Below, piece by piece: positions 6,724-38,594 of a stretch of 64,000 nt of DNA; the first letter of the stretch is position 1, and each line of letters opens with the position of its first letter. The stretch is from a virus. Taxonomy: Duplodnaviria; Heunggongvirae; Uroviricota; Caudoviricetes. The notes beneath the pieces were generated by a model. The model worked only from the letters and a program-made list of their open reading frames with translations, was not told the origin of the DNA and searched no databases. The stretch lies in the IMG/VR virus record IMGVR_UViG_3300025310_000004, positions 59,759 through 123,758 of that record, one strand, 5' to 3'. The translations under genes and the position numbers were made by a program.

Positions 6724-6832
6724 GCTTCACACTCCGTGATTGAGTCGCTGTTGCTTAGTCGGTGGCATCACCGTGGCGGCGACGCTAAGCCCGTGGGCAG
6801 AACGTTGTCAAGAGGTGCCACCAACACCTTGG

Positions 6833-11400: not shown

Positions 11401-11546
11401 TGGTCATGAACTGTCTGCTCGCACTTCTTGAGGTTGAGGCCATGTCTGCGATGCAGCGCCCCCTGAGGGTTGGGCCGAACGGCTTGCGGGTCCCCAACGA
11501 GATGATCGAGCAGGCCCTTGAGCAGCACGAGAGGATTCCGACATGA
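8418..11546 (+). CDS. portal protein interrupted by an intein (Hint + LAGLIDADG-like endonuclease)
   Basis: 1042 aa. Portal-like exteins surround an insert that begins CFDDQTEVLTTEGW and has a WCP motif near its end. Confidence 0.6.
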   Translation: MPRSGPLRRVQLMTNRRLAGFAMARPQASAYATTAALTKIGDIKAPYGTVEAWQRDAYGYYEVIGEVGYIIGMTANTVAACEIRPIEVDNEVAPGGWRETGDERVLRVWNALVGPRGGKAELYRKASMNLQIAGECFLLGSPMEDEFGREAGISWEFISPEELKVENYGRTIKRNMGGYGGQQIVDLDPDAHYIARLWRSDPRFSDRPDCALKHVLPICREVVVLTQVVDAIAKSRLPAGILFVPDEMSFGPYDETEDDSDNTDEIDPFTQELIDHLTAPIEDRTSAASLVPLLMRGPAEFFDKVKLIDIAKELDTLYMELRQEAIHRLATGLDVPPEIMEGKGGLNHWCFDDQTEVLTTEGWKCLDEFEVGDVVLSLNHETGTTEWRPSVDMYVADVVDEPMLSIEGDRHSSLTTMDHRWPTLHRVRENVVDPETGRKTSRVVGQERIWTTSEKLNSNDSLIVGARSSEQPAEQKWSDELVEVAAWLWTEGNIRFRHQRVSPQIGIWQSIKVNPDNVARIRAALTGVFGPALESLTDGEVGRPTGDRREAAWVERIQPGRPDMVEFRLNASAADALVGLFDDPARKVLKLDFIRDLTVAQLELFIDTSIRADGTVLPAGTIHITQSDPDRLAPLELAAILSGRSTHLYETKQNGTMLSISPKTTFTLSRKQLRVVDYTGRIWCPTVPPYHSVLIRRNGKVAFTGQTGYNIDADFISKHVSPLGDMLSEFLTSAYLRPMLVEFEDMSEDEASQYRLLFDPSRITSRTDTGPNARAAYDRTELSRVAYLRESGFDEADAPDYDERKERDLRSLMAAEPIIFGPQVMGMLYPELEGELTLPESSGGNDGGDPGNPTDVPERKNDTGPSSRPVIDNETGQDEPMPRGPSGPRMEETIIDRLATGADAALERALERAGNRVLSKMNGAHVSMKDRFKSTPKTEIISGVSDRELSQLGLTLTDLFAGSWDNLAVRGKGWLRQHFIDQGIDNFTADEKAAMVMNCLLALLEVEAMSAMQRPLRVGPNGLRVPNEMIEQALEQHERIPT

Positions 11547-14500: not shown

Positions 14501-15232
14501 CCCAACGGACGCATCTACGGCCTCGTTGCTCGGTGGGGCACTTGCCACATCGGCTTCTCGGATCGTTGTGTCCAGGTGCCGCGGCCTCACGACGGCTACG
14601 CCAACTTCCGTTGTGGTCACGTCCTGACCGCAGAGGGCACGTTGGTCAGCACCGGCCCCATCTACGCCGACACCGTGCACCCCAGCCTCAAGATGAGCGC
14701 CAGCGACGCCCAGGCGTTCTACGCTCACACGGGTTGCGCTCTGGGTGATGTCGTGCTCTACGAGGGCGAGTTCGGCATCTTGGCCGCTGGTGCGGTCAAG
14801 TCCGATGCTCCCATCGAGGCAGTCAACCGCCTGCGCGCTGCCGGGGTTTCCCCCGACTGGCGCACCATCGATCGCAACCTTGAGATCGTCGGCCTGCTGT
14901 CGGTCAACGTCTCCGGGTTCCCGGTGTCCACCGCCCTCGTTGCGGCGGCTTCGGAGATCGGTGGCATCGTTCCCACGGTCGGCGGTGAGCCGAAGTGGGA
15001 GGTCGATCGTGGTGAGTTCACGTCGCTGGTGGCCGCTGGCTCGCTGATGCCGTGCACCAACTGCGGATCGCACTCCATCGACAACGGGACGGCTCTGGCC
15101 CTCCTTGAGATGCTGAACGATCACGCCATCAAGATCGCCGAGTTGAGCGAGGTTGTGCGCCCCTACCGCATGGAGCGGCTGGTGTCTCGCTTGACCGAAC
15201 TCGGCATCGGGAGTGATCGCTCCGACAGTTAG
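11543..15232 (+). CDS. polyprotein-like fusion: 2H phosphoesterase domain, 2x ~130-aa repeats, U35 prohead protease, C-terminal domain
   Basis: HLTLAY and HITLCY H-x-T/S-x motifs at the N-terminus. Repeats FQAVAIHHTPTSDGPWDG / FKAVPSHDTATIDPPTFTEWDG. Protease block EGVLIVEGLPSGDGRMID...PLMLQ..H. Confidence 0.6.
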   Translation: MSGKRWLGVEAAAARLKASYAADQPDHSAGIMACVRPNDPGRFVVEGGTPEEEVHLTLAYFGKVTDEEWTDSARQQIAEVISAEIAADREPIHGEITAVTTFELAGEDEPPLVLLVDAPGLGEMRAALVKSVNSALGSDQEIKSNHDFMPHITLCYGANDSEEAFAEGLIGEKVTFDSVELVWGTESSVWPLGSNRSDAISDSEAENGLRFEDTNAPQFAEPGAQEGEMPYEIVEKHPECSAGDPYAVVKSDDGELMGCHPSRQDAEEQMAALYQAEEGKEEDSIEASADPLAIVIGDEPTRDERLAAIDEFVAPKNGAGGGGASDDEDEEDDSESEDEVEIEVEVKDSESDDEESDDEEDMDAEGSAEFQAVAIHHTPTSDGPWDGPANEARAKSGESEDYYRNIFAWQDPEGDPETKAAWRFIHHEVSEDGTPGAANLRACSTGIGVLNGGRGGTTIPAADREGVYRHLAAHLADAEKEVPELTSLEGGEAMEAESTAEFKAVPSHDTATIDPPTFTEWDGDEAAKRARSGETPDYYNKIYAWVDSNGDPTNKTSYKFPHHVVSESGEPGAAVVWAVHSSIAVIDDSTIPTSDYQGVYNHLARHLRDAGVEDIPELGEDVASIDEVRAAIATMRARFHAMAAKAVQEASVSKSDITASDDLALVGEVVRRWFESVAKSEAKAVESDAAFAADDEAAISDCPCHDGVLEDGATHTEGCPFAKCDDEMAEEAPEGEEMPPEDDEVVVGDFKRGDYEWEGVLIVEGLPSGDGRMIDEGALTWRELPVPLMLQTINAGGHDGAVIAGSIHEIERVGHEIVGRGYFDSGEAGQEAKRLLSEGTMRGVSADIDSVVAELRDESGADVAMEDVLFGDPGNVMEVLTEGRIMGATMTPFPAFQEAHLKVIGKDDVDEDMVLVASGSKADGEVWRFTSPYPLVGRGGESYKVESLVASGGTVTELPVIPVHPPLAWFAAEDPELDPNMPFTVFPNGRIYGLVARWGTCHIGFSDRCVQVPRPHDGYANFRCGHVLTAEGTLVSTGPIYADTVHPSLKMSASDAQAFYAHTGCALGDVVLYEGEFGILAAGAVKSDAPIEAVNRLRAAGVSPDWRTIDRNLEIVGLLSVNVSGFPVSTALVAAASEIGGIVPTVGGEPKWEVDRGEFTSLVAAGSLMPCTNCGSHSIDNGTALALLEMLNDHAIKIAELSEVVRPYRMERLVSRLTELGIGSDRSDS

Positions 15233-18515: not shown

Positions 18516-19008
18516 TCTCTCGCTTGGTGAGCCGAGCGACGTAGGAGTGGTCCATGCTCAACTCCTCAGCGATCGCCCGGTAGGTCCATCCCTGGGAGCG
18601 CAACTCCACCATGCGGCGCAAGTCGTCGGGCGTCGTCCGGCGATACCCGGAGAAGTTGTCTCCCGCCGCCTTGCGGGCTCGGTACTCCCGCATGTAGGTG
18701 GCCTTCGCCGATGTCGATGGCACCCTGGGGTTGGTGGGCCTCGGCTTGCGGGTCGCGACCTTCTTGACGGGAGGGCTTGCGGCCTGCTCTGTCTTGGTGG
18801 CCTTCTTCCTCCTGGCGCACACCGAACAAGCGCAGTCGTTGCGACCTCGACACCGATGATGTGAGCCGGAGAGGCAGTTGGTGCAGGTGATCACGCCGCC
18901 ACCATAGCAATCCACTGAGACATGTCGCACCCATGATGTATGGTGTGGACCCCGACGAAAGGAGGCCCCCATGATCGACCTGCACGCTCTATTCGCACCC
19001 GACGACAT
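18481..19008 (-). CDS. Zn-finger + C-terminal HTH (sigma-70 region-4/LuxR-like) regulator
   Basis: N-terminal Cys clusters, basic linker and WTYRAIAEELSMDHSYVARL. The 3' end overlaps tRNA-Ser on the opposite strand. Confidence 0.55.
   Translation of the reverse strand: MSSGANRACRSIMGASFRRGPHHTSWVRHVSVDCYGGGVITCTNCLSGSHHRCRGRNDCACSVCARRKKATKTEQAASPPVKKVATRKPRPTNPRVPSTSAKATYMREYRARKAAGDNFSGYRRTTPDDLRRMVELRSQGWTYRAIAEELSMDHSYVARLTKREMAEGRGLEPQG
18923..18944 (+). promoter_or_regulatory. conserved promoter motif TGTCGCACCC-N6-TATGGT (copy 3)
   Basis: This copy has a ~20-nt leader with GAAAGGAGG SD before the ATG at 18971. Confidence 0.45.
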
Positions 19009-19849
19009 CCAGGCCGCTCTGGACGCTGGGCACCTGCTCTCGCAGACCCACCCCGAGTTCGACCTGACGATCTACAACTACTCGTCGCTGTGCCAGATCA
19101 GCCGCGCCTGGACCCCGGTCACCTCGTCGTGCCGGGGCATGATCGTCGGTCCCGACGGCAAGGTGCTGGCTCGGCCGTTCCCGAAGCGCTACAATCATCA
19201 GATGGCGCGATTCTCAAGCACCCCCGAAGCCGCAGCGATCGATCACGAGTTCTTTGGGACCGGGAAGCCCGAGGCTGATTGGCTAGCCGGGCTTGTGGCG
19301 GCGGATGGCTGCATCAAGAACGAGAAGTTCTGGACCATCACACAGTCGGGGGATCACGGACTTGAGTTGATTGAAGCGGTCAGGGGCATGATCAACCATG
19401 GCCTGTCTGTTGGTCACTACAAGCCCAAGCGGGGACGAGTGGCTCATTCGATCTACGTTCCGTCGGCCCAGATGGTGGCAGACCTGGCGACCAACTACAG
19501 CATCACGCCCCGTAAGAGCCTCACGTTGACTCCCCCCACATTGGACGAAAGTCGGTTCTCTAACTTCCTGAGGGGCTACATCGACGGAGACGGCACCGTG
19601 GGGAGATACTCGGTGGGGCGCTGTCCGAACTACCTGATCGTATGCTTGGTCGGAACCGAGGACTTCATCGAATCGGTACACCACCTCAACGAGTCCGGGC
19701 GCGTGAGGGAACTCAAGAGGGCCAAGAATACTTGGGAGATCAGGTTCAACGGGAATCACGCCGTTGACTTCTGTCGTCGGACATATGCGGCTGGGAGCGA
19801 CCTTCCTGTCACGACCAAGGCGAAGAAGGCTTTGGGAGCAATCGGATGA
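18971..19849 (+). CDS. LAGLIDADG homing endonuclease fused to a duplicated RNA-ligase N-terminal segment
   Basis: The first ~100 aa parallel the N-terminus of ORF 19846 (HPEFDL.IYNY...CRG.IV). Then LAGLVAADGCI and LRGYIDGDGTV dodecapeptide motifs. Confidence 0.6.
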   Translation: MIDLHALFAPDDIQAALDAGHLLSQTHPEFDLTIYNYSSLCQISRAWTPVTSSCRGMIVGPDGKVLARPFPKRYNHQMARFSSTPEAAAIDHEFFGTGKPEADWLAGLVAADGCIKNEKFWTITQSGDHGLELIEAVRGMINHGLSVGHYKPKRGRVAHSIYVPSAQMVADLATNYSITPRKSLTLTPPTLDESRFSNFLRGYIDGDGTVGRYSVGRCPNYLIVCLVGTEDFIESVHHLNESGRVRELKRAKNTWEIRFNGNHAVDFCRRTYAAGSDLPVTTKAKKALGAIG

Positions 19850-20940
19850 ATCACATTGGCGAGTTCTTGGATTTGGCCTCCCTGGATGCCCACATCGAAG
19901 CGGGCAACATCTCTCGATCCCCACATCACGAATTCGACCTCTACGTCCTGAACTACACGAACCAGGCGCAGTTCTCTCGCTCGTGGGACAACGAGACGCT
20001 TAATTGCCGGGGCCTGATTGTTGACTCGGGCGGTCTGGTCGTTGCTCGAAGTTGGGCCAAGTTCTTCAACCACACCGAGACGGCCGTCCCCAAGTACGCC
20101 CTGACCACGCCGCCCATCGTCACCGAGAAGATGGATGGCTCGCTGGGGATCATCTACCAGCGTCCCGATGGGCGCTTCGCCGTCGCCACGCGTGGCTCGT
20201 TCGCGTCTGACCAGGCCGTCTGGGCAACGCAGTGGCTCACCGTCGAGATGCCGGGGTTCATCCAGCCTGCTGGTGTGACCACCCTGGTGGAGATCATCTA
20301 CCCCGAGAACCGGATCGTTGTGGACTACGGCGACCGTGCGGAGTTGGTGCTGCTGGGTGCCATCAACATCGCCACCGGAGCCGACATCCCCCTGTGGGAG
20401 ATCGACTGGTGGCCTGGTGCTCGCGCCGAGATGCACACCGGCATCGGCCACATGGACGACGTGTACCGCTTCGCGACGGGCAACGAGAAGGAGAACGATG
20501 AGGGCATCGTGGCGGTCTGGTACCGCCCCGGCGAGCCGTCGTTCCGGCTCAAGGTGAAGCACCCCGAGTACGTCCGGCTCCACCGGATCATCACGGGCAT
20601 CAATACCAAGCGCGTCTGGGAGGTGCTGGCTTCTGGCGGCGACTTCTACGACGTACTGGATCGTGTCCCCGACGAGTTCTACGGCTGGGTCAAGGGGGTC
20701 ATCACTGACCTCCGCAACCAGTACCAGGACATCGAGGATGCGGTCTATGAGCAGTTCCAGATCATCTGCCTCAACACCGACGACGGCGACCGCAAGGGCT
20801 TCGCCGCCAAGGCCAAGGCCACGCCGTGGCCGGGGTTGATGTTCGCCCTGCTCGATGGCAAGGACATCGAGCGTGCCATCTGGGACATGATCAAGCCCAA
20901 GGCCGAGAAGCCCTTCGCTGACCAGGGTGAGGACACCTGA
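19846..20940 (+). CDS. RNA ligase (Rnl-type nucleotidyltransferase)
   Basis: KMDGSLG motif I lysine. Sits beside a Pnkp gene. Confidence 0.7.
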   Translation: MNHIGEFLDLASLDAHIEAGNISRSPHHEFDLYVLNYTNQAQFSRSWDNETLNCRGLIVDSGGLVVARSWAKFFNHTETAVPKYALTTPPIVTEKMDGSLGIIYQRPDGRFAVATRGSFASDQAVWATQWLTVEMPGFIQPAGVTTLVEIIYPENRIVVDYGDRAELVLLGAINIATGADIPLWEIDWWPGARAEMHTGIGHMDDVYRFATGNEKENDEGIVAVWYRPGEPSFRLKVKHPEYVRLHRIITGINTKRVWEVLASGGDFYDVLDRVPDEFYGWVKGVITDLRNQYQDIEDAVYEQFQIICLNTDDGDRKGFAAKAKATPWPGLMFALLDGKDIERAIWDMIKPKAEKPFADQGEDT

Positions 20941-21006
20941 TCCTCCCCTGGTCAGTGTCGCAGTGGTGTGCTACTATCACGCCACGCCAAGAGAGAGGAG
21001 ACACCC

Positions 21007-21864
21007 ATGGCACGACTCATCATCACCCGAGGTCTACCGGCATCGGGCAAGTCCACCTGGGCGATCGAGCAGATCGCCAAGAACCCCGGTCGCACCATCC
21101 GTGTCAACCGGGATGACATCCGCGCCTCGATCCATGGCGGCGGCAAGTGGTCCAAGACCAAGGAGAAGGCGACCGTTGCAGTTCGCGACGCCATGATCCG
21201 TGCTGGTCTGGCGCAGGGCCTCACGGTCATCTGCGACGACACGAACCTGCCCCAGAAGGTCGTGGACGACCTGACCTTCCTGGCGCACGAGGCCAAGGCC
21301 GATGTGCTGGTGCAGGACTTCACCCACGTCTCGCCCGAGGAGTGCATCAAGCGTGACCTCGCCCGTGAGCGCACGGTGGGGGCCGAGGTCATCATGCGGT
21401 GGTACAACGACTTTCTCAAGCCGGACATGACCGTCACCGTGGATGAGTCCAAGCCCAAGTGCGTCATCGTGGACGTGGACGGCACCCTCGCCCTCCACGT
21501 CGCTCGCGGCCCCTTCGAGTACGACAAGTGCTCGACGGACGCTCCCAATCCCCGTGTGGTCGAGTTGATCAAGATGCTCCGCTCGACCTACGAGGTGGTG
21601 GTGTGCTCTGGCCGTGAGGGCACCGATCAGTGCCGCGCTGACACCATCGAGTGGCTGCAGCGTCACGGCATCACCTTCTCGGGGTTCTTCATGCGCCCCG
21701 AGGGTGACATGCGGAAGGACGCCATCATCAAGCGCGAGATTCTGGAACGGGACATCCTCCCGCGCTGGAACCCTGTGCTGGTGGTGGACGACCGCGATCA
21801 GGTCGTCCGCATGTGGCGCGATGCCGGGCTGACCTGCTGGCAGGTCGCCGACGGCAACTTCTGA
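21007..21864 (+). CDS. pnkp: polynucleotide kinase-phosphatase (T4 Pnkp-like)
   Basis: N-terminal P-loop GLPASGKST and C-terminal HAD motif VIVDVDGTLA. Confidence 0.8.
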   Translation: MARLIITRGLPASGKSTWAIEQIAKNPGRTIRVNRDDIRASIHGGGKWSKTKEKATVAVRDAMIRAGLAQGLTVICDDTNLPQKVVDDLTFLAHEAKADVLVQDFTHVSPEECIKRDLARERTVGAEVIMRWYNDFLKPDMTVTVDESKPKCVIVDVDGTLALHVARGPFEYDKCSTDAPNPRVVELIKMLRSTYEVVVCSGREGTDQCRADTIEWLQRHGITFSGFFMRPEGDMRKDAIIKREILERDILPRWNPVLVVDDRDQVVRMWRDAGLTCWQVADGNF

Positions 21865-23612: not shown

Positions 23613-23614
23613 CT

Positions 23615-23635
23615 GTCGCACTCAAGTAGTACGAT
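23615..23635 (+). promoter_or_regulatory. promoter motif variant TGTCGCACTC...TAGTACGAT (copy 5)
   Basis: GTG start at 23643, seven nt after TACGAT. Confidence 0.4.
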
Positions 23636-23642
23636 CTGTTGC

Positions 23643-24407
23643 GTGATCGGTGAAGTTGAGTTCGAGGTACCAGACCTTGCCGAGCCAATCAGGGCTTGGA
23701 GATGTTGGCTGCTGGATGGCGACTTCGCTACGCCCATCTTGAAGTCGCCTCAGTCTGGTGTCATCTGGCCGCCAGTGAACGGGTGGCCGAGCGCAGTGAT
23801 TCGTGATCCTGAGCGCAACTACATCACCGCGACGTGTCGGAACGTGACGGGACCTTGTGGGTCATCGCCGTCGGCATCGCGAGATGGTCACCGTGGGGTC
23901 GGTTGTGGCATCTACGCCTACAAGACCGTCGAGGACCTGGCGTGGGATTGGCCTCTTGCTGGCTTGAGCCGCTTCTCCCCCATGAACCTGCTTCCCCCAC
24001 CGTGGGCGCAAGTGGTGTGGGGCCGTGTGCTGTTGTGGGGTCGCGTGTTCGAGCACGATCGTGGCTATCGGGCTGAGTTCGCTCGCATCGACTCGTTGGT
24101 GAGCGTGCCAAACCTTGGCTTCCTGTCGGACGACAAGTTGCTTGATGTCGCCAAGTTCTACGGGGTTCCCTACGAGGTGCTCACCACCGTGTCCAAGGCC
24201 GACCTCGAAGCGGCGGCGTTGGCTCGCGAGAACGAGATGGTGGAGCGGATCAATGCCGCCTACACCAGCCTCGGGGTAGCCCTGGACAACTTGGTTGATG
24301 TGATGACGCGTGGCATGACCCAGATGGTCAAGAGCGTGGCGGATGCCATCGAGCGCTTCAATGCCACCTACGGCAAGGGCGACGACAAGGAGGATGACGA
24401 TGGGTGA
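23643..24407 (+). CDS. hypothetical protein
   Basis: The ORF-track N-terminus overlaps tRNAs, so I trimmed it to the leaderless GTG after the promoter motif. Confidence 0.5.
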   Translation: MIGEVEFEVPDLAEPIRAWRCWLLDGDFATPILKSPQSGVIWPPVNGWPSAVIRDPERNYITATCRNVTGPCGSSPSASRDGHRGVGCGIYAYKTVEDLAWDWPLAGLSRFSPMNLLPPPWAQVVWGRVLLWGRVFEHDRGYRAEFARIDSLVSVPNLGFLSDDKLLDVAKFYGVPYEVLTTVSKADLEAAALARENEMVERINAAYTSLGVALDNLVDVMTRGMTQMVKSVADAIERFNATYGKGDDKEDDDG

Positions 24408-24566: not shown

Positions 24567-25256
24567 ATGAACGTGATCCTGCAAGGGGTTGTCGGCTCAA
24601 CCGCCTACGGCCTCGCTACCCCAACTTCCGACATCGACCGCCTCGGCGTGTTCCAAGCCCGCACCTCTGAGTTGCTGGGCCTGCATCCGCCCAAGGAGTC
24701 GCGCGTCTCGACCAACCCGGACGTGACCCACCACGAGTTGGGCAAGTTCGTGAAGTTGTGCCTGGCGAACAACCCCACGGTGATGGAGTTGCTCTGGCTT
24801 GACGAGTACGAGGTGATGACCCCCCTGGGTGAGCGCCTCATCGAGCATCGTCAGTCCTTCATGTCGCAGCGCATCCGCAAGACCTACGGTGGCTATGCCC
24901 GCCAGCAGTTCGAGCGGCTGATGCGTCGTGAGGAGGCCGAGCCGGGCGCTGGCTTCGCTGCCGACCTCAAGAAGCGCACCGAGAAGCACGCCCGCCACTG
25001 CTACCGCCTCATCCTGCAGGGCACCCATGCGCTTCGCACGGGTGAGTTGCGGGTGCGGCTGACTTCTGAGGAAGTTCAGATGTGCCGTGAGGCTGGGCTG
25101 ATGGCAGCCAATGACGTGGTGGAGTTCGGCAAGTCCGTCGAGATCGCCATGGCCGAGTTCGATGCCACCCCCACGGACCTCCCTGAGCATCCCGACGATG
25201 CGGACGCGAACTCGATGCTCGTGGTGGCTCGCACGCTCGATCTCACCGCTCCCTGA
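24567..25256 (+). CDS. Pol-beta-superfamily nucleotidyltransferase
   Basis: VVGSTAYGLATPTSDIDRLGVF GS..D.D motif. Confidence 0.65.
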   Translation: MNVILQGVVGSTAYGLATPTSDIDRLGVFQARTSELLGLHPPKESRVSTNPDVTHHELGKFVKLCLANNPTVMELLWLDEYEVMTPLGERLIEHRQSFMSQRIRKTYGGYARQQFERLMRREEAEPGAGFAADLKKRTEKHARHCYRLILQGTHALRTGELRVRLTSEEVQMCREAGLMAANDVVEFGKSVEIAMAEFDATPTDLPEHPDDADANSMLVVARTLDLTAP

Positions 25257-25722: not shown

Positions 25723-25781
25723 CTGCAGCAGGGTCACCTGCGAGCAAGCGATCATTGACAACTGAATAGGTCTACACAGAT

Positions 25782-25849
25782 GGGGCACGCGCAGGGCGCA
25801 CGCGTCGCTGGCAGCGAAGCATCGCGGGGTTCGAGTCCCCGGTGCTCCA
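25782..25849 (+). pseudogene. tRNA-Ala-like pseudo-tRNA lacking an anticodon loop
   Basis: Acceptor GGGGCAC/GTGCTCC with G3·U70 and a canonical T-arm. Only 36 nt separate them: helix TCGCT/AGCGA with a 3-nt loop. Confidence 0.4.
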
Positions 25850-26029
25850 CTGTGGGGAAGGCCGACGGACAAGGCTTAGGCCCGTGAGAGCGTCAGTACG
25901 AACGTGGGAGGACTTCGGTCCGCTTCACCACGCGGAGGCGTTCAAGCCGGGGTGGGTAGCGAGTGGTCGAGTTCTTCCCCCACCAAGGTCGTGGTACGGC
26001 TCCGGGCAACCGGGCCGCCACGGCCTCGT

Positions 26030-26577: not shown

Positions 26578-26682
26578 ATCGCAAGAACTCCCACCCGAGC
26601 ACTCGGGGGTGGATCGAGTAACAAGGACCCATCGTCCCCCGCTTCGGCCGGATCGGTGCTAGGAACCCACTGAGTGCGTCAC

Positions 26683-26762
26683 CGGGGCGTATACCCTCCG
26701 TCTGATAAGCGGTAGAAAGGTTAGTTGGTGACACGGAGGTTCAAATCCTCCCGCCCCGACCA
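26683..26762 (+). tRNA. atypical tRNA (possible Ile-GAT loop CTGATAA; D-region too short, long extra region), CCA encoded
   Basis: Acceptor CGGGGCG/CGCCCCG and a canonical T-arm. The internal region does not fold canonically. Confidence 0.3.
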
Positions 26763-26763
26763 T

Positions 26764-26925
26764 GGTGAGAGACAGGAAGGTACGAGGGTTCGATTCCCTC
26801 ACGCTCCACTCGTGGGGCGTCCGGTGGACTCCGGTGAAGTCGGTTCGATTCCGACGCCCCGTAGGGGTGATGGTCACGAATAGGGTCGCTCCCGCCGAGG
26901 TGGTTCGACTCCACCACTCTCACCA
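26764..26925 (+). ncRNA. three tandem tRNA-like T-arm/acceptor minihelices enclosed by an 8-bp terminal helix, ending CCA
   Basis: T-arms at ~26784, 26851 and 26905, spaced 54-67 nt apart. 5' GGTGAGAG pairs with 3' CTCTCACC. Confidence 0.4.
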
Positions 26926-26931
26926 GATCAT

Positions 26932-27008
26932 GCACGGGTGGCCAAGTCTGGTAAGGCCCCTCCATGACACGGAGGAAACCGCGGGTTCAAATCCCGCCTC
27001 GTGCACCA
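26932..27008 (+). tRNA. tRNA-Val(GAC), CCA encoded
   Basis: Anticodon loop ATGACAC. T-arm GCGGG-TTCAAAT-CCCGC. Confidence 0.65.
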
Positions 27009-27009
27009 C

Positions 27010-27083
27010 TGCGCCGAAGTCGATTGGCGAGACAGCGGCCTCATAAGCCGTGGTAGAGGGTTCGATTCCCTCCGGCGCGACCA
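27010..27083 (+). tRNA. tRNA-Met/Ile2(CAT), CCA encoded
   Basis: Anticodon stem GCGGC/GCCGT. Anticodon loop CTCATAA. Confidence 0.6.
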
Positions 27084-27084
27084 C

Positions 27085-27159
27085 GCACCCAAGGTCTAGA
27101 CGGCGAGACGGCGGCATGGTAAGCCGCAGAGCGGGGTTCAAGTCCCCGTGGGTGCTCCA
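27085..27159 (+). tRNA. tRNA-Thr(GGT), CCA encoded
   Basis: Acceptor GCACCCA/TGGGTGC. Anticodon loop ATGGTAA. Confidence 0.7.
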
Positions 27160-27160
27160 C

Positions 27161-27235
27161 GCACTGGAAGCATGAATGGTGATGCGGCTGTCTCGTAAAC
27201 AGCAGAACCGGGTTCGATTCCCGGCCGGTGCTCCA
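27161..27235 (+). tRNA. tRNA-Thr(CGT), CCA encoded
   Basis: D-stem GCAT/ATGC. Anticodon loop CTCGTAA. Confidence 0.75.
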
Positions 27236-27236
27236 T

Positions 27237-27308
27237 GCCGTTGGCCCTGGTGGGCGCGCCGCCGTTGTACCGCGGTTACCTCGGGTTCGATCCCTGGCGA
27301 CGGCTCCA
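27237..27308 (+). tRNA. atypical tRNA: reduced D-arm and apparent 9-nt anticodon loop (CGTTGTACC), CCA encoded
   Basis: Acceptor GCCGTTG/CGACGGC. T-loop TTCGATC. Confidence 0.35.
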
Positions 27309-27360
27309 AGCACTAGACATCGTTAGACCTGTTCAGTTGTCTGCCCTCAAGGAGACAGAT

Positions 27361-27995
27361 CATGCGAGTTGAGATTCGCCCCGGTGAAGGGGGTGAGGAC
27401 GCCCAGCGCTTCGCCAAGGAGTGCCTTTGACGCGTTCTGCAAGGCGGCCCGCCGACGTGGGCTTGAGCCAGCAGTCAGCGAGTCCGCTCGCACCATGATC
27501 TTGGAGATCGCCGACATCTCCTTCCTTGAGCCCTTCGTCGGCACCCACCGCGTGCAGCGCATCCCCAAGGGGGAGCAGCGCCGTCACACCTCGACGGCCA
27601 CGGTTGCGATCGTCGGCCAGGTAGACAATGACGACTTCATCCCCGATGAGGAAATCGAGGAGCGGTTCGATCGCGGTGGCGGCAAGGGTGGCCAGCACCA
27701 GAACACCACCGACTCGGCGGTGACCCTCACCCACACCCCCACCGGGATCACGGTCCACATCGAGGGACGCAAGCAGTGGGGCAACCGCCAGGAAGCACGT
27801 CGGGTGCTATCCGAACGGGTAGCAGCCCATCGCCGAGCAGAGGCGTTGCGGATGTGCAACGACCAGCGGCGCGCCCAGATCAACCCGGAGCGCTCCGCCA
27901 AGTCGTTCACCCACAACACTCAGCGCAACGAGGTGGTGGACCACGACTCGGGTCGGTCGTGGCGGCTCACCGAGTTCCATAAGGGCAAGTTCTGA
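27361..27995 (+). CDS. prfH-like: class-I release-factor homologue lacking domain 1 (RF-H/PrfH-like); full length requires +1 frameshift at CUU UGA C
   Basis: Frame A gives MRVEIRPGEGGEDAQRFAKECL then TGA. The +1 frame continues DAFCKAARRRG...HRVQRIP...GGQHQNTTDSAVTLTHTPTGI. AAGGAG sits 3 nt upstream of CTT. Confidence 0.65.
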
Positions 27996-28017
27996 TGTCA
28001 CAGCCATCCGCTATGGT

Positions 28018-28827
28018 GTGCCGATGGCCAGGATGCTCGTACTCGGTGACACGCACGGCGACGTGAAGTTCTTGGAGCGCGCCTGCCGGATGGCCGTGAA
28101 GTCCGACTGCGACCGCATCGTCCAGGTCGGCGATTGGGGCTTCCTGTGGCCAGGAGCGAAGAACGATCGCCTCAAGGCGATCACCAACGTGTTGGCGCAG
28201 TTCGACCTCCACATGTTCTTCCTCGACGGCAACCATGAGTGGTATGGCCGCTTGGAGGAGATGGGGGCGACCCCCGATGCTCCCCACATGGTTGCGCTGT
28301 CGGATCGGGTCGCCTACTTGCCTCGTGGCTTCACTTGGGCTTGGGGCGGCGTGACCTTCATGTCGCTTGGCGGTGCCTTCTCCATCGACCAGGACCAGCG
28401 GACCAAGTTCATCGACTATTGGCCCCAGGAGACGATCCGTTACGCGGACGCTGACCGTGCCATTGCCGCTGGGCATGTGGACGTGATGTTCACCCACGAC
28501 GTTCCCGAGGGCGTTGTCAAGTTGGAGGCGATGCTGCATCGCGCCAGTGATCACTACCGGAGGTCCTACGGGGCCAAGTGGAACTACAAGTTGGACCCCG
28601 GCAGCCGGGCCAACCGCAAGACGTTGCGCGCCGTCGTTGACGAGGTGCAGCCCTTCTTGCTGATCCACGGCCACTACCACTGGCGCTACGACGACACCTT
28701 GGTGGGCGAGGACTACACCACCGAGGTGCGCGGCCTTGACTGCAACGGCTCGGGCGAGAGGGCCTGGGGAGTCGTGGATACGGCCGATGTCTTGAGATGG
28801 AGACTTGTCGTTGACGACGACGAATGA
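28018..28827 (+). CDS. calcineurin-like metallophosphoesterase
   Basis: GDTHGD, GDWG, DGNHE and GHYH motifs. Confidence 0.75.
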   Translation: MPMARMLVLGDTHGDVKFLERACRMAVKSDCDRIVQVGDWGFLWPGAKNDRLKAITNVLAQFDLHMFFLDGNHEWYGRLEEMGATPDAPHMVALSDRVAYLPRGFTWAWGGVTFMSLGGAFSIDQDQRTKFIDYWPQETIRYADADRAIAAGHVDVMFTHDVPEGVVKLEAMLHRASDHYRRSYGAKWNYKLDPGSRANRKTLRAVVDEVQPFLLIHGHYHWRYDDTLVGEDYTTEVRGLDCNGSGERAWGVVDTADVLRWRLVVDDDE

Positions 28828-28987
28828 GGACATCCAGCAGCACCCGCTCCACCGGGTGGTGGTGGGGGCGTTGAAGGACACCATCAACATGCACGGCCCC
28901 ATCACCCCCGAGTGGATCGGGTCTGCCGCCAAGCGGATCACGGCTGCCGTGGTGGCCGAGCAGAAGAAGTCTGCGGAAACCTCTTGA
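28805..28987 (+). CDS. small hypothetical protein
   Basis: 60-aa ORF with a TTG start overlapping the upstream gene. Confidence 0.3.
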   Translation: MSLTTTNEDIQQHPLHRVVVGALKDTINMHGPITPEWIGSAAKRITAAVVAEQKKSAETS

Positions 28988-28991
28988 TCGA

Positions 28992-29013
28992 GTGTCGCAC
29001 CCGTGTGCTAGGG
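28992..29013 (+). promoter_or_regulatory. conserved promoter motif TGTCGCACCCGTGTGCTAGGGT (copy 8)
   Basis: Identical to copy 4. ATG at 29021 of a 33-codon ORF, then the Leu tRNA cluster. Confidence 0.5.
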
Positions 29014-29158
29014 TCGTAGACATGTACCGATTGCTCCCCCTCCTACGGCCACTCAAGGCCAAGCCTGGGCATCAGCGCCCGCGCCATGCTGCGCGACCGC
29101 TGAATCCCCAGCAACAGGGGTAGAGCACCTTCTCTCCCCCTGTGGCCTGAGAAGGTCT

Positions 29159-29242
29159 TGCGGGGGTGGCGTAACTGGCAGCCGCGCCGGGTTTAGGTCC
29201 CGGTGGCCGAGAGGTCGTGAGGGTTCGAGTCCCTCCTCCCGC
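29159..29242 (+). tRNA. tRNA-Leu(TAG)
   Basis: Anticodon stem CCGGG/CCCGG. Anticodon loop TTTAGGT. 15-nt variable arm. Confidence 0.65.
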
Positions 29243-29246
29243 ACCG

Positions 29247-29333
29247 AGTGCCCGTGGCGGAACTGGTAGACGCGTTGTCCTCAGAAGGCAATGTCCGCAA
29301 GGGCGTGAGGGTTCGACTCCCTCCGGGCACACC
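29247..29333 (+). tRNA. tRNA-Leu(CAG), CCA encoded
   Basis: Acceptor GTGCCCG/CGGGCAC. Anticodon loop CTCAGAA. Confidence 0.7.
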
Positions 29334-29334
29334 A

Positions 29335-29420
29335 AGTCAGCATGGTGGAATGGTAGACACGCCGTCTTGAGGGGGCGGTGGCCGCAAGGTCGTGAGGGTT
29401 CGACTCCCTCTGCTGACACC
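29335..29420 (+). tRNA. tRNA-Leu(GAG), CCA encoded
   Basis: Acceptor GTCAGCA/TGCTGAC. Anticodon loop TTGAGGG. Confidence 0.7.
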
Positions 29421-29445
29421 AAACGCAAGAAACGCAACAAGATCA

Positions 29446-29527
29446 AGCCCGAGTGGCGGAACTGGCAGACGCGCTCGTCTCAAGAACGAGTGACCTAGGT
29501 CGTGTGGGTTCGACTCCCACCTCGGGC
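29446..29527 (+). tRNA. tRNA-Leu(CAA)
   Basis: Anticodon stem CTCGT/ACGAG. Anticodon loop CTCAAGA. Confidence 0.7.
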
Positions 29528-29560
29528 ACGCAAGGCTCTTTGACAACAGAAGATCACCGA

Positions 29561-33099: not shown

Positions 33100-33790
33100 C
33101 TAGTTCGCAAGACCCCAGACCGCAAGGACGGGGCACTACAACTGAATAGATCGCAGCAGCAGCGTTGCGTAGGAACGGGTTACTTCTCCTGTTAAGAGAG
33201 TGGAGAGGGTTCGACTCCCTCCGGGGCCGCCAACATGGTCCCGTGGTGTAACGGCCAGCACACTAACCGTCACCTGATCCGCCGAGTTCTCGCTGCTGCT
33301 CAATCGCACGACGACGTTGCGAAGCGTTGGGATACTTCCGGTACCACTTTCACCGGGCCTACCTCGTGGTCGAGGACCTGCACTCCGTTGCAGGAAGTGG
33401 GGTTCGATTCCCCGGCTCTCCTCCTGATGCGCCAAGTTCTCGTCGTCGCACCACCTCGGTGGCGATGCGTAGCGTTGGGATACTTCGGTAACACAGGTTC
33501 GACTCCTGTCGGCCAGAGCAATCTGGTTTGGCCCCACTTCGGAGGGGCATCGAGTCCTCGGACTCAACAGCACTCCTGATGCGCCAAGTTCACGCCACCA
33601 AGATGTGGGACGTTGCGAAGGTCCGGGTTACTTCTGGCTTCCAATCAGACCCAACACCTGTACCGACGAGTTCTCGTCCCCTCAACCGCTGGTGGCGGTG
33701 GCGATGCGAAGCCATGGGTTACTTCATCTTGGAACGAACACCTGCGGCGACCAAGTTCACGCCACTGCACCCAGCCCAACCGAAAGGAGC
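33100..33790 (+). ncRNA. tandem array of Y-RNA-like repeats with tRNA-like T-arm modules upstream of Ro60 gene
   Basis: Four to five ~150-bp units share GTTGCG(A/T)AG..GGGTTACTTC and CCTGATGCGCCAAGTTC. T-arms at ~33204, 33397 and 33494. Confidence 0.5.
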
Positions 33791-33796
33791 ACCACC

Positions 33797-35404
33797 ATGG
33801 CCAAGTTCTCGAACACCAAGCCCGCGCCGCGCAAGCGTGCGACGGCCCCGACGAAGGTGACCGGCACCCGCCTCGCTACGCACGAGGGCGGCACCGGCTA
33901 CGCCAAGGACGACAAGACGGCCCTCTACACGCTGGCCGTCACCAACATGGTCGGCGAGCCGACCTTCTACGAGTCCGGCAAGGACCGTGACGACCGCTTC
34001 CGCACCCTGGTGCGGCGCGTGACCACGCAGGACCCCACCTGGGTCGCCGGGTTCATCGGCTTCCTCCGCAACGAGGCCAACATGCGGTCGGCATCGATCG
34101 TCGTGGCTGCCGAGGCGGCCAAGACCCTGCTCGACCTGCGCGCCAAGGGCGTCGAGGTGGACGGCAACGTGCGCTCAATCATCGCTTCGGCGTGCGAACG
34201 TGCCGATGAGCCTGCAGAGATGCTGGGCTACTGGCTCGCCAACTACGGCCGCGCCCTGCCCATGGGCGTCAAGCGCGGCATCGGCGACGCGGCTGTGCGT
34301 CTCTACACCGAGCGCAACGCTCTCAAGTACGACGGCGGAAGCCGTGGCGTGCGGATGGGCGACGTGCTCAACCTGACCCACCCCACCCCTGGTGCGGCCT
34401 GGCAGTCGGACCTGTTCCGCTACCTGCTGGACCGCCGTCACGGGCACGCCGAGGGCGTGGTCCCCGAGACGCTGGCGACCATCCTCGCCGCAACCGACCT
34501 CGACGCGACCCCCGAGGGTCAGCGTCGTGCGCTCCTGCGTGAGCGTGGCCCCGAGGCTCTGGCCGACGCGGGCTACACCTGGGAGCGCCTGAGCGGCTGG
34601 CTGCCCGGCGGCATGGACGCCGAGGCGTGGGAGGCCATCATCCCCTCGATGGGGTATATGGCCCTGCTGCGGAACCTCCGCAACTTCGAGCAGGCCAAGG
34701 TGGAGAAGGCCGTCCTCAAGGGCGTGGCCGACCACCTGGCTGACCCCGAGGCTGTGGCCAAGAGCCGTCAGTTCCCGTACCGCTTCTTCTCGGCGTGGAA
34801 GGCGTCGGGCAGCACCTTCTTCGGTGCTGCGCTTGAAGCGGCGCTGGACGAGTCGGTCAAGAACCTCCCGATCTTCTCGGGGCGCACCCTGGTCGCCATC
34901 GACACCAGCGGCTCGATGCAGTCGCCCGTGTCGGGCCGCAGCCAGGCGCAGTGCTACGAGGTGGGCGCGCTGTTCGGCTCTGCCGTGGCCGCTCGCTCCG
35001 ACTGCGACGTGATCCTCTACGCGGATCGCTGGGACTGGTTCACCCCCGAGGTGTCCGTCCTGCGTTCGGTGGAGAAGGTCCGTCGTCTGATCGGCGAGGT
35101 CGGGTACGGCACCAACACCTGGCCGTCCGTCGCCCAGGCGTTCGCCAACAAGGGCGGCTATGACCGCATCGTGGTCATGACCGACTGCCAGGACCACCCG
35201 GCTCGTGGTGGCCTCTACGGCCACCGCGACACCAGCACGCTGCCGGATGTCCCGATCTACGTCTGGGACCTCCGCGGCTACGAGGCCACCAACATCGACA
35301 ACACGCCGGGGCGCTACCTGTTCGGAGGCTTCTCCGACGCGGCGTTCAAGATGATCGCTCTCATCGAGCGCGGTCAGAACGCCGAGTGGCCCTGGCTCGA
35401 CTGA
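33797..35404 (+). CDS. rsr: Ro60/Rsr orthologue (TROVE domain + vWA domain)
   Basis: N-terminal TROVE-like region and C-terminal vWA MIDAS DTSGSM. GAAAGGAG SD. Confidence 0.75.
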   Translation: MAKFSNTKPAPRKRATAPTKVTGTRLATHEGGTGYAKDDKTALYTLAVTNMVGEPTFYESGKDRDDRFRTLVRRVTTQDPTWVAGFIGFLRNEANMRSASIVVAAEAAKTLLDLRAKGVEVDGNVRSIIASACERADEPAEMLGYWLANYGRALPMGVKRGIGDAAVRLYTERNALKYDGGSRGVRMGDVLNLTHPTPGAAWQSDLFRYLLDRRHGHAEGVVPETLATILAATDLDATPEGQRRALLRERGPEALADAGYTWERLSGWLPGGMDAEAWEAIIPSMGYMALLRNLRNFEQAKVEKAVLKGVADHLADPEAVAKSRQFPYRFFSAWKASGSTFFGAALEAALDESVKNLPIFSGRTLVAIDTSGSMQSPVSGRSQAQCYEVGALFGSAVAARSDCDVILYADRWDWFTPEVSVLRSVEKVRRLIGEVGYGTNTWPSVAQAFANKGGYDRIVVMTDCQDHPARGGLYGHRDTSTLPDVPIYVWDLRGYEATNIDNTPGRYLFGGFSDAAFKMIALIERGQNAEWPWLD

Positions 35405-36632: not shown

Positions 36633-38594
36633 GTGGAGCCGATTCAGATTCCTGAGGACCTCGCGGGTCTATCGGATGAGGAACTGACTTCCCTAGGCGT
36701 TGAGATCAGGGAGCGTGTCGAGGGTCTGGCCGAGGAGGCCCGCACTTCCGACGAGGCTCTGTCTCAGGTCGAGGGACTCATTTCCGACTTCGATCGGATC
36801 AACGAGGAACTCAACAACCGTGAGGAGGCCGCAGCGAACCGCTCGGCTCGCCTCGATGCCGCTCTTGAGCGGTTTGGTCCTGCCGAGGGCGAGGACACCG
36901 ACGAGGCCACCGAGGAGGCCGTCGCCGAGGAGGCCGAGCAGGACTCGGCTGACGAGGAGGCTGCAGCCGAGGAGGACACCGAGGTGAGCGAGGACGCTGA
37001 GGCCGATGCTGATGCTGTCGCCGCTTCCACCGAGGACGAGGCCACCGCCGAGTTCACCGCTGAGGACAGCACCGACACCCCGGATGAGGCACCCGCCGAG
37101 TCCACCACCGAGTTCACCGCCGAGGTGGAGGCCCCTGAGGCCGCTGCTGAGGAGTTCAACGCCGAGGACAACCAGTCCGAGGACTTCACCACCGAGGACG
37201 AGCAGTCCGACGAGTTCACCAACGAGGAGGTCACCGAAGTGGCTGCTTCTGACGACCGGACCCCCAAGGTGTCTCGCCTGCGCGAGCGTCGCCCGGAGGC
37301 TGTCGCCCCCCGCTCCCAGGTGGAGCGGGCCGGTGCCACCCTTGCGGCCCGCTTCGCTGGCGGCAACACCGTCGAGGGTCAGCCCATCGACATCCCCACG
37401 CTGGCCCAGGCCATCGTGGACAAGCGCCTAGCCATGGGCAACGTGCCCAGCGGCATCTTCGACAAGATCACCGTGGCCTCCGCCACGATGGAGTTCGGCG
37501 ATGACGTGGTTGGCGGCGGTGCCCAGGAGAACTTCTCCACCCTGCGCCGGGTCGCCGAGCGCAACACCCAGGTCCGCGAGGAGATCACCGCTCTGGTGGC
37601 CTCCGGCGGCGTCTGCGCCCCGTTGGAGCCGTCCTACGACTTCTTCCGGCTGGCAGAGGCCATGGACCCGGTTGAGCGGTGCCTCGGCACCGTCGGCGCT
37701 CCCCGTGGAGGCATCCGCTACATCCAGCCGCCGGACTGGCGTGACGCCTGCGCTGGCGTCCGGGTCACCACCGAGGCTGAGGACGCCGCTGGCTACGTCA
37801 GCCAGGGTGGCCCCACCCCTGACAAGCCCTGCGTGGCCGTCGAGTGTCCTCCGATCTTGGAGTGCCGCGTCGATGCCGTCTCGCAGTGCGTGACCTTCGG
37901 CAACCTGAACTACCGGGTGTTCCCCGAGCAGGTTGAGGCGTTCCTGGCCGATCTGTCGGTGTGCTTCTCCGAGACGAAGGAGATTTTCTACCTCGACGCG
38001 ATCGACGCCGCCTCGACCCCGGTGACCGCTGGTCCCTCCCCCTACGGCGCTTCCCGCGCTGCGGCCTACGACCTGTCGGTGGCCGCCGCCAACTACCGCC
38101 GTCGTCACCACATGTCGCCGGATGCGACCTTGACGGTGCTCCTGCCCTCCTGGGCGATCGAGTTCCTCAAGATCGACATGCTCAACGACCACTCGTTGGG
38201 CCTGGCGAACTGGTGCCTGTCCGACGCCGACGTTGCTTGCTGGTTCGCCCAGAACAACCTCGACGTGTGCTTCTACTACGACTCGGCCACTGGTGCTGGC
38301 CAGGCGTTCAACGACATCCAGGCTCCTGGTGCCATCAACCAGTGGCCTGACACCATGGTGTCGTACATGTTCGCCCCCGGCACCTTCGTCCGGCTCGACG
38401 CAGGCACGCTCGATGTCGGCCTCATCCGCGACAGCGCCCTCAACGGCACCAACGACCTGCAACTGTTCGCTGAGCAGTGGATTCAGGTCTGCAAGGTCGG
38501 CATCGAGTCGCTCCGCATCGAGCACACCCTGTGCCCGACGGGTGCGGCAACCGAGCCGGTCCCGCCGCTGGTCTGCGCTGCAGGCGTCTCCTGA
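36633..38594 (+). CDS. major capsid protein (HK97-like C-terminal region) with long N-terminal coiled-coil/acidic scaffold-like domain
   Basis: N-terminal ~250 aa are coiled-coil plus Glu/Asp-rich repeats. The C-terminal ~400 aa look capsid-like. Confidence 0.5.
   Translation: MEPIQIPEDLAGLSDEELTSLGVEIRERVEGLAEEARTSDEALSQVEGLISDFDRINEELNNREEAAANRSARLDAALERFGPAEGEDTDEATEEAVAEEAEQDSADEEAAAEEDTEVSEDAEADADAVAASTEDEATAEFTAEDSTDTPDEAPAESTTEFTAEVEAPEAAAEEFNAEDNQSEDFTTEDEQSDEFTNEEVTEVAASDDRTPKVSRLRERRPEAVAPRSQVERAGATLAARFAGGNTVEGQPIDIPTLAQAIVDKRLAMGNVPSGIFDKITVASATMEFGDDVVGGGAQENFSTLRRVAERNTQVREEITALVASGGVCAPLEPSYDFFRLAEAMDPVERCLGTVGAPRGGIRYIQPPDWRDACAGVRVTTEAEDAAGYVSQGGPTPDKPCVAVECPPILECRVDAVSQCVTFGNLNYRVFPEQVEAFLADLSVCFSETKEIFYLDAIDAASTPVTAGPSPYGASRAAAYDLSVAAANYRRRHHMSPDATLTVLLPSWAIEFLKIDMLNDHSLGLANWCLSDADVACWFAQNNLDVCFYYDSATGAGQAFNDIQAPGAINQWPDTMVSYMFAPGTFVRLDAGTLDVGLIRDSALNGTNDLQLFAEQWIQVCKVGIESLRIEHTLCPTGAATEPVPPLVCAAGVS

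Follow-up and report, generated by a model that had tools for sequence, protein, structure and literature searches.

An RF1-like release factor gene in the tRNA island of a large tailed phage carries a conserved prfB-type +1 frameshift cassette

The 64,000-nucleotide (nt) stretch of DNA analysed here, called the window throughout, covers positions 59,759-123,758 of the record IMGVR_UViG_3300025310_000004 and comes from a large tailed phage; all coordinates below are those of the window unless a relative is named. It contains, on the + strand, a gene for a homologue of class-I release factors (RF) at 27362-27995 (Pfam RF-1, E=1.4e-19) and a metallophosphoesterase gene at 28018-28827 (Pfam Metallophos, E=5.8e-7; PHROG 1649 'metallo-phosphoesterase', E=1e-42). 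An earlier note on this DNA had recognised both genes, had given the exact gap between them (22 nt, 27996-28017), and had interpreted them as a PrfH-like factor and a phosphoesterase forming a candidate module for the rescue of damaged ribosomes or RNA. That note lacked what proved to be the most informative feature of the locus, namely a +1 frameshift cassette of the kind found in prfB, the gene for RF2, which divides the release factor gene between two reading frames and recurs in its relatives. In this study, the gene structure, the conservation of the cassette, the class of the factor, and its relationship to the neighbouring phosphoesterase were examined.

The open reading frame (ORF) that is obtained mechanically for the release factor begins at a TTG codon (27369) and thus has a wrong-frame N-terminus, the first ~30 residues of which matched nothing. 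As listed in Table 1, a Shine-Dalgarno (SD) sequence precedes an ATG from which a short frame-0 ORF is read, and the rest of the protein is encoded in the +1 frame. In most relatives, a GGAG or GAGG element likewise stands 5' of the ATG. The frame-0 peptide contains RPGEGG(D/E)DA..F, which is how domain 2 of RF1 and of single-ORF relatives begins, and the +1 frame after the cassette reads DAFCKAARRRG. When the two frames were fused, the coding sequence became join(27362..27427, 27429..27995), with a product of 210 amino acids (aa). This fused product aligned to RF1 without a gap at the junction (FAKECL/DAFCKAARRRG, with the slash at the junction, against FARDLFRMYTRYAERKG), and its residue 3 aligned to RF1 residue 90 in T. 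maritima and 109 in T. thermophilus. Moreover, with the frames fused, the product scored 127 bits with the RF1 model instead of 111, and the length of the product across the junction agreed with that of single-ORF actinobacterial relatives of ~225 aa. As read from the sequence, a prfB-type +1 frameshift is required to produce the full-length factor. A 166-aa product from an internal ATG, as called in some database entries, was rejected given that it would lose the conserved frame-0 RPGEGG segment; transcriptional slippage was also rejected, the T run at this site being just three bases long. The entries of this release factor clade in the public protein collection are all mis-called at the N-terminus (165-229 aa, with a +1-frame start or an internal Met), because gene callers have no frameshift model.

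The cassette follows the prfB pattern closely. The published prfB consensus consists of CTT_TGA_C, with a C after the stop codon and an upstream SD whose 3' end lies 6 nt from the UGA. The cassette of E. coli prfB, AGGGGG-TAT-CTT-TGA-C, has the same architecture as the phage AAGGAG-TGC-CTT-TGA-C, so that the SD-like hexamer, the 3-nt spacer, the CUU, the UGA, and the C are all present at 27416-27431. Both genes also start with a short frame-0 ORF (22 codons in the phage, 25 in E. coli) and encode the body of a class-I release factor in the +1 frame. The 15-nt pattern AGGAGNNNCTTTGAC occurred once in the window, and none of 100 shuffled versions reached even one occurrence. From this architecture, we infer that frameshifting itself takes place. 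The phage gene differs from prfB in being RF1-like, in being borne by a phage, and in having its cassette in the first helix of domain 2. This position, in domain 2 and not in domain 1, indicates that the cassette would have arisen independently of that of prfB.

Table 1. Features of the window discussed in the text (window coordinates).
Feature	Coordinates	Strand	Remarks
Portal	8418-11546		
Rnl1-type ligase	19846-20940		
Pnkp	20968-21864		
RlaP-family nucleotidyltransferase	24567-25256	+	PF10127, E=1.1e-23; heads the tRNA array preceding the RF gene
tRNA-Thr(CGT)	27161-27235	+	final gene of the upstream tRNA array; RF gene begins 126 nt later
Initiation Shine-Dalgarno AAGGAG	27349-27354	+	read from the sequence; 7 nt 5' of ATG 27362
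Frame-0 ORF, 22 codons + TGA	27362-27430	+	MRVEIRPGEGGEDAQRFAKECL, then stop; encodes the first part of RF domain 2, with the helix-tip motif GxGGxE/D
+1 frameshift cassette	27416-27431	+	AAGGAG 27416-27421, spacer TGC, CTT 27425-27427, TGA 27428-27430, C 27431
+1-frame part, 188 codons + TGA	27429-27995	+	remaining domain 2, GGQ domain 3, domain 4; stop TGA 27993-27995
Codon-recognition loop PKGEQRRHTS	27564-27593	+	HMMER alignment to RF1
GGQ catalytic motif	27687-27695	+	residues 109-111 of the fused product
Metallophosphoesterase, 269 aa	28018-28827	+	GDTHGD, GDWG, GNHE, H160, GHYH; intact
Small ORF, 60 aa	28805-28987	+	GC3 = 0.89; overlaps phosphoesterase 3' end by 23 nt
tRNA-Leu array (TAG, CAG, GAG, CAA)	29160-29529	+	downstream of RF; tRNA-Leu(GAG) would read the CUU shift codon
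Major capsid	36633-38594		

Conservation of the cassette was assessed in ten related metagenomic lineages (given L numbers below), which together with the window made 11 lineages and which came from independent JGI, ENA, and Logan samples. Release factor homologues of 52-89% aa identity were found in metagenomic contigs only. All ten related lineages contained the same frame-0 peptide and then required a +1 shift at the same codon. In eight of them, the cassette had the form (A/C)AGGA(G/C)-N3-CTT-TGA-C; L095, which at 84-89% identity is the closest relative, read GGGGG-CTC-CTT-TAA-C at its positions 655-664, with TAA for TGA. When all 11 lineages were counted, the cassette stop was UGA in 10, UAA in one, and UAG in none; the stop codons of 55 ORFs in the window were TGA (37), TAG (17), and TAA (1). 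Coding periodicity was also measured. Upstream of the shift site, variable columns comprised 21 of 22 frame-0 third positions, compared with 11 of 22 first and 10 of 22 second positions; downstream, they comprised 9 of 10 third positions of the +1 frame, compared with 6 of 11 at each of the other two. The codon periodicity therefore moves by +1 at the shift site. Public gene calls, which annotate the +1-frame part only and give it variable false starts, are what might be seen if the frame break had come from faulty sequencing or assembly, or from a mutation that inactivated the gene, so that the gene would be a plain ORF or a pseudogene. However, because the same +1 break occurs at the same codon in 11 lineages from independent assemblies, and because coding periodicity is kept on both sides of it, we dismiss this explanation as hardly credible; the break, moreover, falls within a 15-nt motif of prfB-cassette architecture. 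The cellular relatives of ~225 aa, mostly from Actinomycetota, are encoded in a single frame and have no cassette, which makes the cassette a feature derived within the phage clade. Insertion of one T into ...AAG-GAG-NNN-CTT-GAC..., in which AAG-GAG encodes Lys-Glu, would create it.

To which class the factor belongs was addressed by sequence and by fold. In a profile search against PDB sequences, RF1 scored 133 bits, RF2 82, C12orf65 70, PrfH 60 and 54, and ArfB 22; among the NCBIfam models, the fused product scored 127 bits with RF1, 87.5 with RF2, and 55 with PrfH. Every family cut-off was missed. The RF1 models (TIGR00019 and NF001859), whose cut-offs are 400-423 bits, gave 120-127, and the four-domain architecture was incomplete for lack of domain 1; RF2 (TIGR00020) gave 87.5 against 370, and there was no SPF tripeptide; ArfB/ICT1 gave 30 against 100, with domains 2 and 4 present and no counterpart of the basic C-terminal helix by which ArfB probes an empty mRNA channel; and PrfH (TIGR03072) gave 55.2 against 166.65, with only the GGQ domain (residues 85-178) aligned. 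The phage factor thus lacks domain 1 and contains domains 2, 3 (GGQ), and 4. GGQ was essentially invariant in 80 homologues (G105, G107, and G108 invariant, Q109 nearly so), and the RF1-type decoding elements were kept, including the GxGGxE/D helix tip, the Gln of HRVQ, and HTS. Relative to RF1, domain 2 has a deletion of ~10 residues, and the RF1 loop P-x-T-E-x-Q-G-R-I-H-T-S has become PKGEQ--RRHTS, with Gly in place of the PxT Thr and a deletion of two residues; this PKG loop is conserved across the phage clade.

Comparison of folds led in the same direction. In an AlphaFold model of the release factor (pLDDT 85), the N-terminal 30 residues are wrong-frame and residues 1-14 have pLDDT <50, and the comparison therefore used residues from ~31 onward. 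The model superposed best on domains 2-4 of ribosome-bound RF1 (TMq 0.81); PrfH on the damaged ribosome ranked 48th, with TMq 0.64 and 19% identity. Absence of domain 1 is a PrfH feature described in the literature, and the phage product likewise starts at the first strand of domain 2. The recognition domain of PrfH, on the other hand, is reported to be strongly divergent and to make no contact with mRNA, peptide release by PrfH is described for ribosomes cleaved in the decoding centre only and irrespective of A-site mRNA, and PrfH has not been reported to need a frameshift; domain 2 of the phage factor aligns to RF1 over its full length. The PrfH likeness drawn in the earlier note is therefore one of architecture (domain 1 missing, GGQ kept), and scores and fold favour RF1. 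These combined data identify the phage factor as an RF1 derivative with a PrfH-like truncation and not as a member of the PrfH family.

Given the parallel with prfB, the gene is predicted to work as follows. Translation from ATG 27362 would proceed through 22 codons and bring CUU into the P site and UGA-C into the A site. In bacterial prfB, a ribosome paused at CUU and the weak stop UGA-C either terminates or slips by +1, aided by the SD-like element; in the phage gene, AAGGAG three nt 5' of the CUU would in the same way drive the +1 slip of peptidyl-tRNA-Leu from CUU to UUU. Only the shifted ribosomes would make the 210-aa factor, and termination at the UGA would release a 22-residue peptide. 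Output of the factor would be inverse to the capacity for UGA termination, with slow termination raising it and fast termination lowering it, such that the cassette would serve as a termination sensor. The loop would be autoregulatory if the factor acts at UGA and UAA; otherwise, the cassette would report the activity of host RF2. On the ribosome, the factor would hydrolyse peptidyl-tRNA through its GGQ motif, and during infection it may supplement or replace the termination or rescue activity of the host as part of a translation island with 37 tRNAs. The phosphoesterase would be a separate resident of this tRNA and RNA-repair island and probably an RNA phosphodiesterase. Because the cassette is stop-codon-dependent, we link the factor to termination and not to nuclease damage. 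Overall, we consider it reasonably probable that the product of this gene, as part of the tRNA island, acts in release or rescue for the phage, and that it senses termination and probably regulates its own synthesis.

Gene order in the relatives supports the association with tRNAs. The release factor gene directly followed tRNA-Thr in nine of the ten related lineages as well as in the window, and in most lineages it was followed by a short block of genes and then by the same Leu-Pro-Gln-His-Asn-Lys tRNA array. RlaP lay 5' of it in six related lineages (L001, L002, L004, L005, L012/L016, and L096). A phosphoesterase gene was found downstream, on the same strand, in seven of nine assessable lineages at a distance of 0.6-4.6 kb, though never adjacent. 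RecA lay between the two genes in L002, L012, and L016 (1.1-1.4 kb; in L016 together with a small ferredoxin-like ORF) and, with an intein and extra ORFs, in L001 (3.7 kb). A ~200-aa ORF separated them in L096/L019 and L023 (0.6-0.8 kb), and a ~200-aa ORF, ClpP, and a methyltransferase did so in L004 (2.0 kb); in these three lineages, RtcB came directly after the phosphoesterase, with 2-4 genes between the release factor and RtcB. Several ORFs, some of them reversed, intervened in L005 (4.6 kb). In L006 and L014/L018, the release factor was present and no phosphoesterase was found within 7-10 kb. L095, which was outside the nine assessable lineages, had RecA right after the release factor, and its short contig then ended. 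The RecA gene following the release factor carries an intein in L001 (8648-10498) and probably in L095 (1278-1940). No homologue of RecA and none of RtcB was found in the 64-kb window.

The 22-nt adjacency on which the earlier note had built its module was thus seen in this genome only. Because the closest relatives have RecA between the two genes and the window has none, the adjacency is secondary, and it would have arisen here through loss of RecA. The converse arrangement was seen in L182, a 158-kb metagenomic phage contig, in which RlaP, tRNAs ending in three tRNA-Thr, ClpP, a methyltransferase, the phosphoesterase, and RtcB were found (2574-7988) and the release factor was absent. The phosphoesterase family also occurred in 299 records of cultured phages (actinophages) without this release factor; the tRNA island of Rhodococcus phage Trina contains a member with a nucleotidyltransferase two genes away. 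L183 has one close to a CCA-adding-type enzyme. The release factor and the phosphoesterase are thus gained and lost independently, and the release factor is tied more tightly to tRNAs than to the phosphoesterase. A single adjacency carries limited weight as support for a module; the phosphoesterase belongs to the RNA and tRNA island and, judging from these sequences, appears to be a frequent but dispensable neighbour of the factor and not a demonstrated partner. In L014, a tmRNA gene (4624-5006) was found 1.7 kb upstream of the frameshifted release factor gene in the same tRNA island, with no phosphoesterase or RlaP nearby.

The phosphoesterase itself was then compared with known families. All five metal-binding motifs of PF00149 (D-x-H, G-D, G-N-H-E/D, H, and G-H-x-H) were present, and the ligands were invariant or nearly so in 77 homologues; the GDxHG and GNHE motifs listed in the earlier note were found, and the second motif reads GDWGF and not GDxxD. 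A sequence search against the PDB returned only spurious matches to bL27m and sulfite reductase, and comparison of folds was therefore needed. The model of the phosphoesterase had a pLDDT of 96 and a complete active site. Entries for Dbr1 or the lariat spliceosome filled the top ten Foldseek places (E ~1e-11 to 1e-12), and LpxH and Mre11 came next at ~1e-6, so that Dbr1 was the closest fold. Dbr1 itself is distinguished by a Cys in its motif I together with a loop for lariat recognition and a C-terminal domain. The phage protein has Asp in motif I (GDTHGD) and, with 269 aa compared with ~350 for Dbr1, has no C-terminal domain. Its fold was not of the PPP or lambda-phosphatase type, the branch to which RNA end healing by bacterial Pnkp belongs. 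The model thus places the phosphoesterase in the Dbr1/Mre11-like branch of phosphodiesterases and nucleases and not in the lambda-phosphatase branch. Its substrate is probably nucleic acid, and RNA in particular, if its neighbours (RtcB, RlaP or CCA-type enzymes, and tRNAs) are a guide. The 60-aa ORF that overlaps its 3' end had no family match; an ORF 83% identical to it follows the phosphoesterase in L002.

These results bear directly on whether the two genes could nevertheless act together. According to this explanation, the factor would be a functional analogue of PrfH for ribosomes hit by ribotoxins or anticodon nucleases, and the phosphoesterase would heal 2',3'-cyclic or 3'-phosphate ends for sealing by Rnl/Pnkp or RtcB. 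The absence of domain 1 and the degenerate PxT loop would fit, as both are found in PrfH; so would the presence of RlaP, Rnl1, Pnkp, and a 2H domain in the same region, the phosphoesterase downstream in seven of nine lineages with RtcB directly after it in three, and the adjoining of the phosphoesterase to RtcB or tRNA nucleotidyltransferases even in phages without the release factor. Published comparative genomics also ties release factor paralogues to RNA repair, such coupling having been proposed for PrfH and C12orf65. Nonetheless, sequence and fold are far closer to RF1 than to PrfH, the RF1-type decoding elements are kept, and a stop-codon-dependent cassette suggests a response to termination and not to damage. 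Either gene was also found alone, even where the island layout was the same, and RNA end healing is known from the lambda-phosphatase type, to which the phosphoesterase does not belong. RtcB, for its part, requires no removal of the 3'-phosphate. We therefore regard a PrfH-like role for the pair as unlikely. What remains of the proposed rescue module is a region rich in RNA-repair genes, with a phosphoesterase commonly downstream of the factor and RtcB directly after it in some lineages; membership of the factor in the PrfH family, the adjacency as a general feature, and the end-healing type of phosphoesterase did not hold.

Several points weigh against our preferred reading of a termination-sensing factor. 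In L096 (~4113-4185), the cassette reads AAGGAG-TTG-AGG-TGA-C, with AGG in place of CUU, which is not a known prfB-type slippery codon. The cassette lies in domain 2 and not at the prfB position, and the homology of mechanism with prfB is drawn from sequence architecture alone. The AlphaFold model of the factor was built upon 30 wrong-frame N-terminal residues. There may also be a link to repair, given that a phosphoesterase persists downstream in seven of nine assessable lineages and that RlaP and RtcB are close by. Finally, loss of the PxT Thr and shortening of the loop may mean that stop-codon reading has been lost rather than re-specified; if so, the cassette would sense host RF2 and would therefore not be autoregulatory.

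The last point leads to another explanation, namely that the protein is a codon-independent rescue factor in the style of ArfB, for which the cassette would be a switch thrown upon collapse of host RF2 (by shut-off or defence), with the phosphoesterase unrelated. Apart from the altered recognition loop, this would be consistent with the location of the gene within a tRNA island, the tmRNA close by in one relative, the GGQ-only RF-1 domain protein that Cluster C mycobacteriophages have beside RecA, and a published study of mycobacterial tRNA arrays that reports RF-1, Pth, and tmRNA genes in such arrays. However, domains 2 and 4 are retained and conserved, and a codon-independent factor would not need them; in addition, the ArfB-type basic C-terminal tail is missing. 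The usage of UGA, rarely UAA, and never UAG as cassette stop is expected if the factor reads RF2-type codons, yet sensing of host RF2 would give the same result. An ArfB-style role therefore appears to be quite improbable. As a more specific form of the termination-sensing reading, the RF1-derived factor may have been re-specified to UGA (with UAA) or to all three stop codons and may for that reason have acquired a prfB autoregulatory cassette, a proposal that we consider possible but rather doubtful. If it were correct, the factor would be a self-regulating phage substitute for host RF2, whose loss or inhibition would then no longer affect the phage, and the phage would possess a near-autonomous decoding set of ~37 tRNAs and a terminator; the gene would also represent the first CUU-UGA-C device outside prfB and a natural re-engineering of stop specificity through the tripeptide loop.

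When compared with known systems, the factor resembles RF1 (prfA) most, both in sequence (127 bits) and in fold (TMq 0.81), with GGQ, GxGGxE/D, the HRVQ Gln, and HTS in common; it differs in the absence of domain 1, the change of PxT to PKG, a loop two residues shorter, and a score far below the 400-423-bit cut-off. With the PrfH/RtcB2 system it shares the form of a ~200-aa class-I release factor paralogue without domain 1, RNA-repair surroundings, and, in some relatives, RtcB two to five genes downstream of the factor; in contrast to that system, there is no two-gene operon with RtcB here, and the phage factor keeps an RF1-type decoding domain. The nearest cellular relatives (38-47% identity) are the single-ORF 'peptide chain release factor-like' proteins of ~225 aa from Actinomycetota (for example Actinomadura, Spirillospora, and metagenome-assembled genomes of Acidimicrobiaceae). 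They likewise lack domain 1, start with EIRPGEGGDDA, and have a non-PxT loop (PKND or PRND), but they have no cassette, mostly have a full-length loop, and are encoded by chromosomal genes that, at the loci examined, stood alone and had neither tRNA nor repair genes around them. Among phages, gp200 of the cluster C1 mycobacteriophage Bxz1 is a GGQ protein of a tRNA-rich actinophage and is encoded immediately 5' of RecA, as is the factor in the closest relatives of the window; it differs in having only 113 aa, the GGQ domain alone, 40% identity over 55 residues, and neither domains 2 and 4 nor a cassette. Bxz1 gp204, annotated as an exonuclease, was considered as a homologue of the phosphoesterase and was rejected, being PD-(D/E)XK-like.

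A tblastn search of phages with the release factor returned only canonical RF1- or RF2-like matches (many of them low-quality records or huge phages) and no actinophage match. Reference genomes of 185,579 species yielded neither a member of the phage clade nor a prophage or a link to a host, the best matches being the single-ORF relatives at <=47% identity. The reviews consulted describe the frameshift device for prfB only, and a 2016 review states that an RF1 counterpart of it is unknown; in our survey of the literature, which had incomplete coverage, no prfB-type frameshift in a phage release factor or in any non-prfB release factor gene was found. The SD-CUU-UGA-C frameshift is a textbook case of translational autoregulation, and a conserved copy in a phage RF1-like gene would represent an independent origin, which bears upon why the cassette is so invariant. 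The phage cassette would be a compact natural sensor of termination capacity, and its gene a new kind of phage translation factor; this suggests that termination or rescue, too, is provided and controlled by tRNA-rich phages.

With respect to the setting of the locus, the window has a G+C content of 62-64%, and nearly every gene lies on the + strand. Besides the portal and major capsid genes, the structural set in the window includes two major-tail paralogues and a 2236-aa tape measure protein. Between portal and capsid is an accessory region with 37 tRNA genes in five arrays (30 of them confirmed by Rfam) together with RNA-metabolism genes; when the whole window was searched with Rfam, only tRNAs were found, and neither a tmRNA nor any other RNA family was detected. 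A scan for promoters and terminators over 24.4-31.4 kb gave nothing exceeding the expectation from shuffled sequence. The region 27000-29200 had no megablast match among 50,697 phage records, and the phage has no close cultured relative in that collection. Its capsid is ~36% identical to capsids of Arthrobacter, Gordonia, and Microbacterium phages, and RlaP and the phosphoesterase matched Streptomyces, Rhodococcus, and Mycobacterium phages; from these matches, the host is most likely an actinobacterium.

Other RNA-related genes of the region were also inspected. The Rnl-type ligase and Pnkp at 19.8-21.9 kb and the 2H domain at 11.5 kb, which the earlier note had counted as parts of a distributed RNA-repair toolkit, were recovered; the second phosphoesterase that it had placed at 15.6 kb is a PHROG-284 'exonuclease' with no more than a sub-threshold match to Metallophos_2. 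Just 5' of RlaP, an ORF at ~23614-24407 (+) occupies the same position in six related lineages and L182 (28-75% identity) and is without a family match; its mechanical start overlaps two tRNA-Arg genes, which means that the real start is later. Within the tRNA array, two stretches of 300-350 nt (25724-26029 and 26579-26931), in which neither a tRNA (by ARAGORN or Rfam) nor a convincing ORF was found, could be degenerate tRNAs or other small RNAs. A gene for a Ro60-like RNA-binding protein (33605-35404, PHROG 850) is preceded by a 570-nt gap (region from 33037), and no Y-RNA-like family was found near it at Rfam gathering thresholds. Directly upstream of the ligase gene, a 292-aa ORF (18971-19849, +) consists of a LAGLIDADG-type endonuclease preceded by a short Rnl-like stretch, which shares 42% identity with the intact ligase over 64 aa; it has the appearance of a trace left by a homing endonuclease at the RNA ligase gene. 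Finally, the 2H domain, which is similar to 2'-5' RNA-ligase-like phosphoesterases, forms the N-terminus (residues 49-183) of a 1229-aa protein (11543-15232, +) and is fused to a MuF-like minor head or portal-associated region (PHROGs 859 and 21470); this arrangement suggests that the 2H phosphoesterase may be carried in the virion and possibly ejected.

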